Part shown: piece after piece, positions 3,005-35,741 of the stretch
Layout of the letters: each line of letters starts with the position of its first letter
Numbering within the stretch: position 1 is the stretch's first letter
Virus genome (UHGV): UHGV-0127965
Direction: 5' to 3' (one strand)
Length of the DNA stretch: 37,909 bases
Source: a virus
Position numbers and translations under genes: made by a program
Notes under the pieces: generated by a model
What the model was told of the DNA's origin: nothing
Seen by the model: only the letters and a program-made list of their open reading frames with translations
The model's database searches: none

Positions 3005-3301
3005 TCAGTCATTACTGATAGCGCCATAGCGTGAGCGGTAATTACGCAGGCGCGGGTCGATATATTCAGGGAAGTGGGTATATGTGGCTTTGCGTAATGG
3101 TCGGATTGATGTTTCGTTTATTCGGTCTTTTTCCTGTTTTTCTGCGAGTTGTATATCGCGTCGGTACTTCCGTTCTGCTTTTGTTTCTGGTGGCAGAGCA
3201 AGAAACGCGCCGAGATTATTCTTGATACTTTCCAGCACCTCCGATACGGAATTGCCGGAACAGCGGCGCGGGTCATCCGCACCATACAGAGGCGCTGGCA
3301 T
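3005..3301 (-). CDS. Hypothetical protein, 98 aa
   Basis: ATG with AGGAG RBS; in the early operon. Confidence 0.5.
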
Positions 3302-3314
3302 GATTTTCTCCTGA

Positions 3315-3794
3315 TTAAATTGCGTGAATAGCGTGACGAGGGAAGGGGAGAGTTACTGGCTCCTCGTCTGGGTAGATAGGTTTGTTATGTTTGTGCCACT
3401 CGACATGACATGACTTGCAGAGCCACATCACATCGGTTGGTTTACTGTAGTCGCAGTGGTGCGCCTGTGGTTTACATTCTGATCCGCAGCACTCACATTG
3501 TGGTGGTCGGATTAGCTTACCGTCGCGCAAAAAATTACCCACAATGATGTGGGCTTTTCTTTTCCATGGGTTGCTCTGAATGAACCGATTTTTGGCTGCG
3601 TTACACCGTTCTCTTCCGCGTTCCGATGATTGATATTCTCTCCTTGCTGATACTCGATGTGGCAATCCAGCGCGTTCTTTGTCGTATTCAGCCAGGCAAG
3701 CCCGGCAAGCGGCAGTTAATCCATCTCTGGATGCTCTTCTGATTTGAAAGTCCCTTTCTTCCTTCTGTTGATGGCATCTTGAGCAGATTTTCAT
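3315..3794 (-). CDS. HNH endonuclease with N-terminal CxxC zinc finger
   Basis: C-terminal CECCG...AHHCDY...WLCKSCHVEWH fits the HNH motif (C-X2-C, HH, C-X2-C-H); AGGAG RBS. Confidence 0.7.
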   Translation of the reverse strand: MKICSRCHQQKEERDFQIRRASRDGLTAACRACLAEYDKERAGLPHRVSARREYQSSERGRERCNAAKNRFIQSNPWKRKAHIIVGNFLRDGKLIRPPQCECCGSECKPQAHHCDYSKPTDVMWLCKSCHVEWHKHNKPIYPDEEPVTLPFPRHAIHAI

Positions 3795-3803
3795 ATTCAG
3801 CTC

Positions 3804-4277
3804 CTAGAACGGAATATCCGAATCGTCGAAGTTCATAGGTGGTTCGCTGTGATCCCCCTGCTGCTGAGGTTGCTGTCTTTGTTGCTGACCGCTATTTCGC
3901 TGAGGAGAAGACTGTTCATTGCCTCCTTGCTTGCCACCAAGCATTTGCATGGTTCCACCAACGCCCACGATGACTTCGGTAGTGAACCGATCCTGTCCGC
4001 TTTGATCCTGCCATTTTCTTGTCCGCAATTTGCCTTCAAGATAAACCTCAGAGCCTTTTCGCAGATATTCGCTGGCAATTTCTGCCAGTTTCCCGCTCAT
4101 TACCACACGGTGCCACTCCGTCTGCTCCTTTTGCTCTCCAGTTTGCTTATCACGCCATTGTTCTGACGTAGCAACTGTAAGGTTTGCAAATGCCGTTCCT
4201 GATGGTGAATATCTGATTTCTGGATCATGCCCAAGGCGACCAATAATGATCACCTTATTTATCCCGCGAGAACTCAT
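3804..4277 (-). CDS. ssb: Single-stranded DNA-binding protein
   Basis: [18 protein letters not shown]-fold N-terminus, Gln/Gly-rich linker and acidic DDSDIPF tail; start taken at the ATG with a GAGGTGGAG RBS rather than the track's upstream GTG. Confidence 0.9.
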
Positions 4278-4741
4278 TTGCTCCACCTCTTGCCAGTTTT
4301 TATGTTGCTTATAATTGATTGAGATACACCCATGTCTTTTGCTATCTTGTACTGACTCTCTTTTTCAGAGAGTCTTTTCCTAATTTCTATAACCTGCCAC
4401 TCTGTTAATTTTGCACCATGATGAGCATGACCTTTTTTGGCTCCACGATGCCTTCCTTTTGCTATCTTGTCGTCCATGTTTTCTTGCGCGCTACCTAAAA
4501 AGAGATGTTCAGGATTAACGCAGCATGGGTTATCGCATTTGTGGCAAACCATCTTCCCAGATGGGATGGGGGAGTGATAAAGCTCAAAAGCAACCCGATG
4601 AGAAAGCATTGTTACGCCAAAGGCTACAAATTTTGTGTATCCTCCTTTGTTTTTTGAATAGGTAGACTCCCAGCAACCTGTTGTTTCATTAACTTTGTAG
4701 CTGGACTCGAATCTTTTAATAATTCCGTCCAAGTGAGACAT
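4274..4741 (-). CDS. HNH homing-type endonuclease (HNH_3-like with C-terminal HTH)
   Basis: [18 protein letters not shown]...N HNH core; abuts the recombinase stop and the ssb start with no intergenic spacer. Confidence 0.75.
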
Positions 4742-5919: not shown

Positions 5920-6888
5920 TTAGTAGGTTATTTTTGTTGCGAATACTTCGCCTTTTACGATGGCTATTATGATATTTTTAGCAACATCTTCTGATGCGCC
6001 AACCTTGATAAGGTCAGCAAGTATTTTGTTATTTACTTCTTTCCGGTGAGCTTTATCCTTTGCTCTACACTCTTCTTCTTCCTTGATTCTTTTTTCTTCT
6101 GCTATTCTGGCTTGCTCTTTTGCTTCAGCCTCGCGCCGGATTCGTTCAGCCTCCTCCTGTGCTTTTCGGCGTTCTGCTTCAATTGCCGCCTGCTTTTCTC
6201 TTTCAGCTCGTTCTGCTGCCTCTTTTGCTTCGCGCTGTGCTCGTTGCTCGGCTTCAATGCGTTCACGCTCTGCACGTTCCGCTGCGGCCTTAGCTTCTGC
6301 TTCTCGCCTTGCTGCTGCTTCAATTTCGGCTTTTGCCTTTGCTTCGGCTTCAGCTCTGGCTTTCTCTTCAGCTTCTCTTTTTAAGCGTTCTTCATGCTCT
6401 CGCTTTTCCTGCTCAGCTTTGAGTCTTGCCTCTTCTCTTTGGCGGTCAAATTCGCGATCCATCAAAATCGCTATTTCATGGTCAGACTCAATTTGCTTTG
6501 CGAGAGCTTCAGCTGCTGCCTTAGCTTCTTCTTCGGCTTTAATCCGCGCCTGTTCTTCCTCATAATCAGTAAGAGGCTGGCGCGCCTTGGCTTTCAGTTC
6601 ATCAAGGCGATCACGCACTGTCTTGCGGTTGGCATCAATTAGCTTTGGAATTTCCTTAAGTTCAGCAACAAGGTCTTTGCCAAGACCATCGAGATATGTT
6701 TTCGTCTGCGCAACTTTATACGCCAGAGAAGCGATCTCCTTTCTGCCCTTTGCCGTTGTGATATCAGGCACAAAGGACATAACTTCACGTTCAACCTTTT
6801 GAAGGATTTCTTCAATCTGGTCGGCAGACTGAAATACAGTCATTGCATTTGCTTTTTCAATAACAACTAAATCTGTTACTTCACTCAT
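5920..6888 (-). CDS. Coiled-coil protein with long E/A/K/R low-complexity repeat, 322 aa
   Basis: GGAGG RBS; structured N-terminal 100 aa then about 180 aa of AEAKA/EEKAR repeats; function unknown. Confidence 0.6.
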   Translation of the reverse strand: MSEVTDLVVIEKANAMTVFQSADQIEEILQKVEREVMSFVPDITTAKGRKEIASLAYKVAQTKTYLDGLGKDLVAELKEIPKLIDANRKTVRDRLDELKAKARQPLTDYEEEQARIKAEEEAKAAAEALAKQIESDHEIAILMDREFDRQREEARLKAEQEKREHEERLKREAEEKARAEAEAKAKAEIEAAARREAEAKAAAERAERERIEAEQRAQREAKEAAERAEREKQAAIEAERRKAQEEAERIRREAEAKEQARIAEEKRIKEEEECRAKDKAHRKEVNNKILADLIKVGASEDVAKNIIIAIVKGEVFATKITY

Positions 6889-6900
6889 ATATCCTCCATC

Positions 6901-6927
6901 AAAAAAATTGCCCTCACATTAGAGGGC
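6901..6927 (-). terminator. tL1-like intrinsic terminator inside the pL operon
   Basis: Minus-strand hairpin GCCCTC-N6-GAGGGC followed by AAT7; lies after the first post-N gene and before the rest of the operon, consistent with N-dependent readthrough. Confidence 0.6.
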
Positions 6928-7031
6928 AAAGAAGATTTCCAATAATCAGAACAAGTCGGCTCCTGTTTAGTTACGAGCGACATTGCTCCGTGTATTCACT
7001 CGTTGGAATGAATACACAGTGCTTATTTGTA

Positions 7032-7502
7032 CTAATAAAATACCCAATTTTCTGTTTCTTGGTTGTGTCCAAAGTTATATTCAATATCTGGTGTTGATGT
7101 ATCAATATTCTTCATCCCATCAACAAGAGTTGATACAACAGCCAAATCTTGTTTGATTCTCATTAAATGGTATTTCTTCCGGCGCAATAAACTTTCAATG
7201 GCAAGTTTCTTCGTTGGGAATGCAAAAGATCTTTCTGCATTTTTTGCTACTTTCTTAATTGCATATCTATTTCTCTTTTGTTTCCATTCCTGTAACCACT
7301 GATTTGGTGCTGGTTTAAAATTAACAATCCAATGCGCAGGAACCAACCATGCATAATGCTCTGTCTGATGAAAAGCTATATATTGAAGTGCGAATATTTT
7401 GATTCCATCTTCTTCAACTGTCGCCTGGAATCTCCAGAAAACAGGCATTCCATCATGTTCAGTTTCTGATTCAGGAAAAGGTACGCTCCATGATTTTGTC
7501 AT
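7032..7502 (-). CDS. Hypothetical AT-rich cargo protein, 156 aa
   Basis: GAGGTGAG RBS; markedly AT-rich compared with neighbours; sits where lambda ral/sieB lie; no family recognised. Confidence 0.55.
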   Translation of the reverse strand: MTKSWSVPFPESETEHDGMPVFWRFQATVEEDGIKIFALQYIAFHQTEHYAWLVPAHWIVNFKPAPNQWLQEWKQKRNRYAIKKVAKNAERSFAFPTKKLAIESLLRRKKYHLMRIKQDLAVVSTLVDGMKNIDTSTPDIEYNFGHNQETENWVFY

Positions 7503-7510
7503 ATCTCACC

Positions 7511-7837
7511 TCAAATAAGTGGCTTGCTGCCTAATTTCATTTTCTGGCGACCAACACAAGTCACACCCATTTCACTGCGTGGCTTGCTGTACCATGTGCG
7601 CTGATTCTTGCGCTCAATACGTTGCAGGTTGCTTTCAATCTGTTCGTGGTATTCAGCCAGCACCGTAAGGTCTATCGGATTCAGTGCGCTTTCTACTCGT
7701 GATTTCGGTTTGTGATTCAGCGAGAGAATAGGGCGGTTAACTGGTTTTGCGCTTACCCCAACCAACAGGGGATTTGCTGCTTTCCATTGAGCCTGTTTCT
7801 CTGCGCGACGTTCGCGGCGGCGTGTTTGTGCATCCAT
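7511..7837 (-). CDS. N: Antitermination protein N (lambda type)
   Basis: MDAQTRRRERRAEKQAQWKAANPLLVGVSAKPVNRPILSL... is essentially lambda N, including the arginine-rich boxB-binding motif. Confidence 0.95.
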   Translation of the reverse strand: MDAQTRRRERRAEKQAQWKAANPLLVGVSAKPVNRPILSLNHKPKSRVESALNPIDLTVLAEYHEQIESNLQRIERKNQRTWYSKPRSEMGVTCVGRQKMKLGSKPLI

Positions 7838-8105: not shown

Positions 8106-8136
8106 GCCCTTCTTCAGGGCTAAATTTTTAAGAGCC
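8106..8136 (-). promoter_or_regulatory. nutL (boxB plus boxA-like)
   Basis: Reverse complement gives GCCCTGAAGAAGGGC (lambda nutL boxB) and GGCTCTTAA, one mismatch from boxA CGCTCTTA; flanking sequence matches the lambda N leader. Confidence 0.85.
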
Positions 8137-8174
8137 TCACCTTCATGGTGGTTAGTGCGTCCTGCTGATGGCTT

Positions 8175-8298: not shown

Positions 8299-9651
<1,353 letters not shown>

Positions 9652-16247: not shown

Positions 16248-16322
16248 GGGTCAGTCGTATAAAGGTCATTACGGAAGGCTGTTAACCTTCTTATCGTGGT
16301 TCGAGTCCACGCTGTCCCGCCA
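16248..16322 (+). tRNA. tRNA-Asn (anticodon GUU)-like gene
   Basis: Hand-folded cloverleaf: acceptor GGGTCAG/CTGTCCC (6 of 7 pairs), U8, D-loop with GG, anticodon stem GAAGG/CCTTC with loop CTGTTAA, T-arm CGTGG-TTCGAGT-CCACG, discriminator G, encoded CCA. Confidence 0.55.
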
Positions 16323-27270: not shown

Positions 27271-27804
27271 ATGTTAAGTGAAAACGCAAAAGATATCGAA
27301 GGATATGAAGGACTGTACGCCATCACTAATGATGGTAGAGTTTACTCGCATTCAAGAGTAAATTTGAGGGGGCGTCTTATTAAGGGGAGGTGGCTGAAGC
27401 ATAATCATAACGTAAATGGATATAAGTATGTGTGTTTATATAAGGATGGCGTAAAAAAGAACATACTAATACATAAGCTTGTTGCATCTCACTTTGTTGG
27501 TGGATTTGCTGAAGGGTTACAGGTAAATCATATAGATGGTGATAAATATAATAATAACTATCTAAATCTTGAATGGGTTACTCCATCAGGAAACATCTCA
27601 CACTCATATGGATTGGAATCGAGAGGTAATGTAAAAGGAGAAAGGAATGGTAATTCTAAAATATCTAATGATGATGTCATAAAGATAAAAGAAATGGTTG
27701 CCAATGGATTTCCTCAGTGTGAAGTTGCTAAATTATTTGGAATTCACAATTCAAAGGTTAGTAGAATTGTAAATGGCAAGGCATGGAGGCATGTTAATGG
27801 CTGA
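27271..27804 (+). CDS. Free-standing HNH homing endonuclease (NUMOD4-like plus HNH plus C-terminal HTH)
   Basis: [16 protein letters not shown] (NUMOD4-like), HKLVASHF...[24 protein letters not shown] (HNH) and a C-terminal HTH; AT-rich island; AGGAG RBS. Confidence 0.8.
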
Positions 27805-34811: not shown

Positions 34812-35741
34812 ATGAAAAGTATAGCAACAGCAGTATCTACTATCAACGTGCCATTCCACGGCGAAGAGCTTTATGTCGTCAATCACAACGGTGAGCCGTA
34901 CACCCCAATGAAACCTATCGTTGAAGGTATGGGTATGGATTGGGCTTCACAGTTTACGAAAATAAAGCAACGGTTTAAAACCTCCATTGTGAAAATCACA
35001 ATGCAGCTTCCTGGTGATGAACAGTGCCGTGAGATTATTTGTTTGGCACTTCGCAAACTTGCTGGCTGGCTGCAAACCATCAGCCCTAACAAAGTCCGCC
35101 CTGAAATCCGCGACAAGGTAATCCAGTATCAGGAAGAGTGTGACGATGTGCTCTACGAGTACTGGACTAAAGGCCATGTAGTTAACCCACGCAAAGCTAA
35201 AAAGGCGTTGCCTGGTAAAATCACCACTGAACAGCAGGAAGCCATTAAACAACTCGTCATGAGTCGCGGTCAGTCTCTGCCAAAGGAAAAACAGGCTAAG
35301 GCGATGATCACCATGTGGTCGTCACTGAAATCCCATTTTGGATGTTCATACAAAGAAATCAGTGAGGGGCAGTTTACCGAAGCACTGTCACTTGCAGCTC
35401 GAGTTCCGCTTGAAGGTGAGTTCATTGGCAAACAAGAGAAGAAAACCAACGAGCTTTCTGCAAAAGAAGCAAACAGCCTTGTATGGTTATGGGATTATGC
35501 CAACCGCTCACAGGCATTATTCCGCGAACTGTATCCGGCGCTAAAACAAATTCAATCGAACTATTCAGGCAGATGCTACGACTACGGTCATGAGTTCTCG
35601 TATGTTATCGGAATGGCGAGAGACGTTTTAATAAACCACACACGAGATGTTGATATTAATGAACCAGACGGACCAACGAATCTTTCCGCATGGATGAGAC
35701 TTAAGAATAAAGAATTACCTCCTTCAGTACATAACTACTGA
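34812..35741 (+). CDS. ant: Antirepressor (P22 Ant-type)
   Basis: 309 aa after the Arc-like gene; N-terminus [11 protein letters not shown]...[18 protein letters not shown] resembles the P22-type antirepressor N-domain (from memory). Confidence 0.6.

Follow-up and report, generated by a model that had tools for sequence, protein, structure and literature searches.

The small AT-rich gene that directly follows the antiterminator gene N in the phage genome UHGV-0127965 is, by its sequence, a long-catalogued phage gene, known as HK97 gp45, 933W L0079, or phrog_1636, and the copy described here adds nothing new to that family. The gene, hereafter orf156, ranks among the most frequent occupants of a classic variable slot of the lambdoid phages. 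It is conserved, selected, and phage-specific. The two hairpins behind it constitute a separate conserved module which, as judged by alignment, is homologous to the lambda PreS small RNA (sRNA) together with its terminator tL2a. The product of orf156 may be an early lytic host-takeover or counter-defense factor that works via a conserved basic surface, a reading to which we assign a probability of roughly 0.4.

The stretch of DNA analyzed (37,909 nucleotides, hereafter the window) is almost the whole genome of a P22-like lambdoid phage of Escherichia coli, whose closest relatives are CurroJimenez_Bas106 and IME10. Its leftward early operon occupies the minus strand (Table 1) and runs from PL/nutL through N, orf156, a hairpin, PreS sRNA/tL2a, and a 322-aa gene to cIII, kil, erf, and onward, with an HNH endonuclease gene, ssb, a Lar-like/endonuclease gene, and abc2 located after erf. 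Homology to lambda PL/nutL extends across window positions 8170-8076, with the PL transcript start near 8170, and N is 92.9% identical in nucleotide sequence to lambda N over 7884-7536. Near the far end of the operon, a gene at 3315-3794 (-) encodes a 159-aa protein with a Lar-like restriction-alleviation N-terminal part (phrog_5558, E 3e-8) inside the ‘endonuclease’ family phrog_2340, and it adjoins abc2 (anti-RecBCD) at 3005-3301. Given this pair of adjoining genes, the PL operon already carries recognizable counter-defense genes. Elsewhere in the window, a tRNA-Asn (GTT) gene is found at 16248-16322 (+) in the late-regulatory/lysis region (ARAGORN; Rfam tRNA, 55 bits).

Table 1. Features of the leftward early region around orf156 (window coordinates).
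Feature	Position	Strand	Evidence
nutL boxB (GCCCTGAAGAAGGGC)	8106..8120	-	96.8% identity to lambda 35489-35583, annotated nutL included
Lambda-type antiterminator N, 108 aa	7511..7837	-	Pfam N36, E 1.6e-26
Overlap of N stop codon and orf156 Shine-Dalgarno sequence (TGAGGTGAGAT, then ATG)	7503..7516	-	Direct reading of the sequence
orf156, 156 aa	7032..7502	-	ORF and phrog_1636 match
14-bp hairpin without U-tract	6988..7019	-	RNA fold
Putative PreS (LPR1) homolog, 87 nt, ending in tL2a	6901..6987	-	94.8% identity to lambda and terminator scan
322-aa Glu/Lys/Ala-rich protein, next PL-operon gene, start just past tL2a	5920..6888	-	phrog_1376; position and length as Sf6 gene 33

The reading frame begins with ATG and encodes a protein of 18.6 kDa with a pI of 9.0. 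It matches the phrog_1636 profile from end to end (residues 1-156 on positions 1-156 of 156; E 5.4e-112). Its sequence is shared in full (100% identity) by an unannotated ORF that H-19B has between N and gene 17, and identity is 99.4% to 933W L0079 (NP_049479) and 98.7% to HK97 gp45 (NP_037731). The original prediction had recognized no family in this protein. One exists in the phage catalogs, but neither a curated family nor a solved structure covers it: searches of Pfam, NCBIfam, and PADLOC with orf156 and 43 family members return only sub-threshold noise, and no PDB sequence falls below E 0.1, whether the query is the protein alone or a profile. No published study of a family protein was found by gene name, PHROG id, RefSeq/GenBank accession, or topic, and the family could not be traced in the accessible portion of the supplementary files of a phage accessory-gene screen (PMC12373910).

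The gene is widespread. Copies stand in 83 phage records, and most Stx1 phages and many Stx2 phages have a member of the family; of 5426 complete E. coli genomes, 598 hold the gene, in 834 copies with up to four per genome, always annotated as ‘hypothetical protein’. Codon comparisons point to strong purifying selection: against homologs at 63-68% identity, nonsynonymous differences amount to 0.20-0.24, with synonymous differences saturated at 0.78-0.90, and a close pair of homologs gives a dN/dS of 0.135. Forty columns are invariant in an alignment of 23 homologs. A profile search of 1.8 billion cluster representatives recovers 88 relatives at E<=1e-3, mostly 130-155 aa long and 20-25% identical, and the family is spread over tailed phages of varied type.

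The base composition of orf156 is atypical. The gene had been described as strongly AT-rich, and a windowed profile bears this out, with a GC content of 35.7% (GC3 27%) against 47.4% for the window, a value within the lowest 1.2% for windows of 471 nt. In three further genomes orf156 likewise lies 6-9 GC points under its own flanks, so the low GC belongs to the gene. Only one other stretch of the window, 27271-27804 (+), matches it in AT-richness. This stretch, with about 34% GC, is probably a mobile insertion among the virion genes; its product, of 177 aa, is an HNH homing endonuclease (PADLOC HEase, E 1.2e-31). The PL operon contains another HNH endonuclease gene, at 4274-4741 (-) between erf and ssb (155 aa, 40.8% GC; phrog_59, E 1.8e-33). 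Morons are commonly told by two marks, an atypical base composition and a promoter and terminator of their own. orf156 displays the first; as for the second, a scan that also missed PL finds no promoter-like site upstream, N ends 8 nt away, and the terminator is the shared tL2a, which is present with or without orf156.

The junction with N is equally compact. The TGA stop codon of N lies inside the Shine-Dalgarno string of orf156, TGAGGTGAGATATG, and only 8 nt separate the N stop from the orf156 start, in agreement with the predicted 156-aa gene at 7032-7502 placed directly after N with a ribosome-binding site. Because the gene starts so close to N and its ribosome-binding site overlaps the N stop, there is no room for a promoter of its own, and none was detected for it by a scan insensitive enough to miss PL itself, so that a promoter inside N is conceivable. 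On the minus strand, a terminator scan reports no site before the strong one at 6929-6908 except a weak site at 8260-8240, upstream of PL, which we read as the end of the cI transcript. This layout implies that orf156 should be an immediate-early gene, transcribed from PL and independent of N. The protein would be made together with N as soon as infection or induction begins, without waiting for N to act, and the gene would be silent in a repressed prophage.

In lambda, PreS lies beyond tL1. Between N and tL2a the window shows no homolog of the tL1 annotated in HK620, so PreS would here be part of the N-independent immediate-early transcript, and in this phage it should be transcribed without N. 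On the other side of PL, where lambda has rexAB, a 158-aa ORF at 8299-8775 (-), assigned to phrog_2651 (function unknown), overlaps cI (8700-9332) at the 3′ end of the latter. Read from an internal Met, its product begins with a stretch resembling a signal peptide, and the terminator-like site at 8260-8240 follows the ORF.

The slot held by orf156 is, on alignment, precisely the lambda sieB/orf28/ral slot, a site of variable cargo. Lambda aligns to the window down to 7536, inside N, and then again over 7022-6889, the hairpin/terminator block; between these matching flanks lambda holds sieB-orf28-ral and the window holds orf156 alone. The flanking homology therefore puts the gene exactly at the ral/sieB cargo site to which it had been assigned. 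Other cargo is found in the same slot in Sf6 (genes 36, 35 (ral), and 34), HK620 (hkaQ and the sieB-like hkaP), HK022 (IS903), and VT2-Sakai (orf20/19). A tblastn search of the window finds no homolog of ral, sieB, ea10, or gp17. Kinship of orf156 with known occupants was considered and rejected: profile comparisons show it to be unrelated to Ral, H-19B/P22 gp17, Sf6 gp34, and HK620 HkaQ, and SieB has no tblastn match to the window.

The borders of the insertion can be drawn from other carriers. H-19B, HK97, and 933W-type phages are about 98% identical to the window from 7563-7591 to 6885-6902, so the cassette spans the last N codons to the terminator, and in many phages that otherwise differ it is at least 95% identical. 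The window begins to show homology with H-19B, HK97, and PA28 at 7563-7591, and the last ~17-27 codons of N belong to the mosaic segment common to orf156-carrying phages. H-19B, HK97, and 933W-type phages carry other N alleles. In these phages the non-coding leader before orf156 is homologous to the last 50-80 nt of the window N (within 7511-7591, -), as seen when window 7511-7591 (-) is compared with three related loci (L001 2498-2558, L006 2439-2500, and L002 2470-2558). From these alignments, the orf156 cassette appears to have brought along what is left of the 3′ end of a lambda-type N, where recombination joints cluster.

The gene was originally predicted to be bracketed by hairpins and closed by a tL1-like terminator. 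Two stem-loops are indeed present at the predicted coordinates, the one at 6990-7017 without a U-tract, yet both sit downstream of the gene. The first, of which 6990-7017 is the inner part, is a 14-bp stem at 7019-6988 with two G-U pairs and the loop CAAC, and it is identical in lambda, HK97, and H-19B. The second is a terminator, with a stem at 6929-6908 (GCCCTC/GAGGGC) followed by T7 at 6907-6901. Overall, the 146-nt region after the gene folds at -52.1 kcal/mol (z-score -6.2 against shuffles). Rfam holds no family for this block, its sole match being a chance one to RyhB at E 0.84.

The block is readily placed in lambda, where 34045-33911, between ral and ea10, is 94.8% identical to window 7022-6889 over 134 nt. 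In that interval lambda encodes LPR1, or PreS, an Hfq-bound sRNA of ~88 nt that is processed to ~68 nt and whose 3′ end is tL2a, with a GC-rich stem and poly-U; PreS is a product of the lytic cycle that increases the translation of DnaN and helps the phage DNA to replicate (10.1101/2024.10.31.621285). The corresponding segment of the window, counted from 6987, next to the hairpin, through the final T at 6901, measures 87 nt. It differs from lambda PreS/tL2a by three substitutions, in and just after the terminator loop, and the part upstream of the terminator is identical, including the region in which the ‘unpaired’ seed has been placed (10.1101/2024.10.31.621285). Records of Sf6 and HK620 label the same block tL2A, that of Sf6 also as a ‘boundary sequence’ of the mosaic, and the HK620 tL2A copy is 98.2% identical to the window. 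The tL1 annotated in HK620 has no match in the window. Since the block matches tL2A and HK620 tL1 has no counterpart, the tL1-like label is to be replaced by that of a lambda tL2a homolog.

The block is found in 325 phage records, whatever the gene upstream, and 2234 E. coli genomes contain it, at 3193 places, which greatly exceeds the number with orf156; the copies of the gene in these genomes correspond to about a quarter of all PreS-block loci. Because the block is kept whatever the upstream gene, the hairpins are not features of orf156, to which they had originally been tied. The gene simply supplies the mRNA whose 3′ end carries the PreS/tL2a module. Conceivably, the U-less hairpin at 7019-6988 may be a processing point that sets where the upstream mRNA ends and where PreS begins. 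The stem left on the mRNA would then protect its 3′ end. A 32-aa ORF at 6885-6983 (-) overlaps the PreS-like RNA and the terminator and is most likely spurious.

The protein itself could be modeled with confidence once remote sequences were included. AlphaFold run with close homologs only gave a pLDDT of 65, and that model was not used; adding 15 distant relatives raised the pLDDT to 91.9, with a pTM of 0.77. The model contains strands at residues 19-30, 33-46, 50-55, and 83-86, short helices, a 33-residue helix at 98-130, and an ordered tail. In this prediction the N-terminal part is an acidic three-stranded beta-sheet, the middle is very basic, and the tail is acidic. Residues 61-130, which include the 33-residue helix, hold 17 Lys/Arg, and when close and distant relatives are aligned together, K87, R91, and K109 do not vary. 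The modeled protein appears to be soluble. When the model is compared with the PDB by Foldseek, the best match has an E of 0.3, whereas BFVD yields 12 significant structural matches, all of them uncharacterized phage proteins, with hosts in Erwinia, Achromobacter, Delftia, Sinorhizobium, Rhizobium, Cellulophaga, and Tenacibaculum. Remote homology and structure prediction thus deliver a confident model (pLDDT 92) and uncharacterized phage relatives only, and the predicted fold is without a counterpart among solved structures.

Among the readings considered, an early lytic host-takeover or counter-defense factor is the favored one. The orf156 protein would act in the cytoplasm early in lytic growth, binding nucleic acid or an acidic host protein through its conserved basic surface, and it would be a positional alternative to ral rather than an exclusion protein. 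A counter-defense role is hinted at by the replacement of ral in position, in a window that has no ral. An anti-restriction role is possible and weakly suggested. Many anti-restriction proteins, such as Ocr and ArdA, are acidic DNA mimics, and the basic character of orf156 counts against such a role. Sequence similarity to known anti-defense proteins is not seen in Pfam, NCBIfam, or PADLOC, or when orf156 is compared with Ral by hhalign. A more ambitious proposal, tentative and offered at rather long odds, is that the gp45/L0079 family could be a new class of immediate-early counter-defense/host-takeover protein, its fold absent from the PDB, which would be made with N before antitermination and whose basic surface would act on host nucleic acid or on a defense/repair complex, for example as a functional alternative to Ral.

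The gene neighborhoods of relatives bear on both this reading and its main competitor. A narrower family alignment leads to 11 related loci, and relatives sit in early/accessory gene clusters of phages and prophages. A DNA methyltransferase gene lies within ~5 kb in ~10 of ~24 loci, a count that stands without a matched control set; one locus also has a Lar restriction-alleviation gene and one an Acb2/Tad1-type gene in the same operons. The methyltransferase association is suggestive, a hint of counter-defense that may only reflect common early accessory regions. About half of the loci have recombination, replication, or int/xis neighbors instead. In Bas81 and NX263 the homolog heads an operon that contains ParB-like, MarR-like, and RusA genes; a Vibrio phage relative adjoins RecE; another relative follows AAA_24 and DUF3799 nuclease genes; yet another is located beside a primase-polymerase and a VRR-NUC nuclease; and a Pectobacterium prophage relative is directly upstream of Exc-Int.

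Neighbors of this second kind favor a small basic DNA/RNA-binding protein that serves the phage's own early program as an accessory or regulator of DNA transactions (replication, recombination, excision, or transcription). The basic middle with its invariant K87, R91, and K109, the long amphipathic helix, and the placement of orf156 upstream of cIII, kil, erf, and ssb in the window point in the same direction. However, the gene is dispensable cargo, as lambda, Sf6, HK620, and VT2-Sakai do without it and have unrelated genes in the slot. In addition, the protein shows no known DNA-binding fold, and the loci share no consistent partner gene. We therefore regard an accessory role in DNA transactions as possible but doubtful.

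Superinfection exclusion or lysogenic conversion, with orf156 expressed from the prophage in the manner of sieB, is improbable. The idea is prompted by a slot in which lambda and HK620 hold sieB-type genes, by an AT-richness shared with many morons, and by the great frequency of the gene in E. coli prophages (598 of 5426 genomes). SieB is membrane-associated and expressed in the lysogen. By contrast, orf156 has the orientation of N and starts 8 nt downstream of it, with no promoter detected by the scan that missed PL, whereas sieB and hkaP are on the opposite strand. The protein has no membrane segment, judged by reading the sequence, in which the absence of any long hydrophobic stretch accords with the original prediction of no TM segments, and it has no similarity to SieB or gp17. 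Its relatives also occur in phage records without an annotated integrase in the stretch examined. Finally, the gene at 8299-8775, just downstream of cI, is a better candidate than orf156 for a prophage-expressed conversion/exclusion gene.

Least probable of all is a selfish mobile gene, homing-endonuclease-like or toxin-like, that uses the conserved flanks as recombination joints: orf156 is AT-rich relative to its flanks in four genomes, forms a sharply bounded single-gene cassette that is at least 95% identical across many different phages, and shares the window with two probably mobile HNH endonuclease genes (27271-27804 and 4274-4741) that range from AT-poor to AT-rich, but it lacks a nuclease motif or fold and any HEase match where true HNH genes scored 1e-31, and the fold persists, under purifying selection, in relatives at 20-25% identity from many phage lineages, as is typical of a functional protein. 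Assignment of orf156 to the HNH/homing endonucleases themselves was rejected, as no nuclease motif or structural match is present and PADLOC, Pfam, and PHROGs give no HEase/HNH match.

Both the ORF and the RNA module are already on record, so the finding is ordinary in itself, and the gene is a reasonable experimental target. orf156 is found in 933W, H-19B, and many other Shiga-toxin phages as well as in the model phage HK97, and its layout predicts expression in the first minutes of infection or induction. The early program of medically relevant phages has a gap here, which a defined role in counter-defense, in interfering with the DNA metabolism of the host, or in regulation would close. The reassignment of the hairpin/terminator block matters for annotation, because PreS, an experimentally characterized and conserved sRNA, is left unannotated in genome records.

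Among known systems, the nearest to orf156 are HK97 gp45, 933W L0079, and the H-19B ORF, which are the same protein in the same place after N, with the same hairpin and terminator downstream. They differ in the approach to the gene: H-19B and HK97 have a 58-nt non-coding leader between N and the gene, whereas in the window a lambda-type N ends 8 nt before it, and the 58-nt leader is homologous to the 3′ end of this N. Lambda SieB and HK620 HkaP share the variable slot after N, but their genes are read in the direction opposite to orf156 and N. In lambda, ral is located beyond tL1 and is hence N-dependent, whereas no terminator was found between N and orf156 in the window. Ral is also much shorter (66 aa against 156 aa) and has no sequence relationship to the orf156 protein (hhalign probability 0.2%). 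What the two have in common is their position. The gene upstream of PreS is ral in lambda and orf156 in the window, each being the last gene before the hairpin-PreS-tL2a block, on the same strand, and each a dispensable early cargo.
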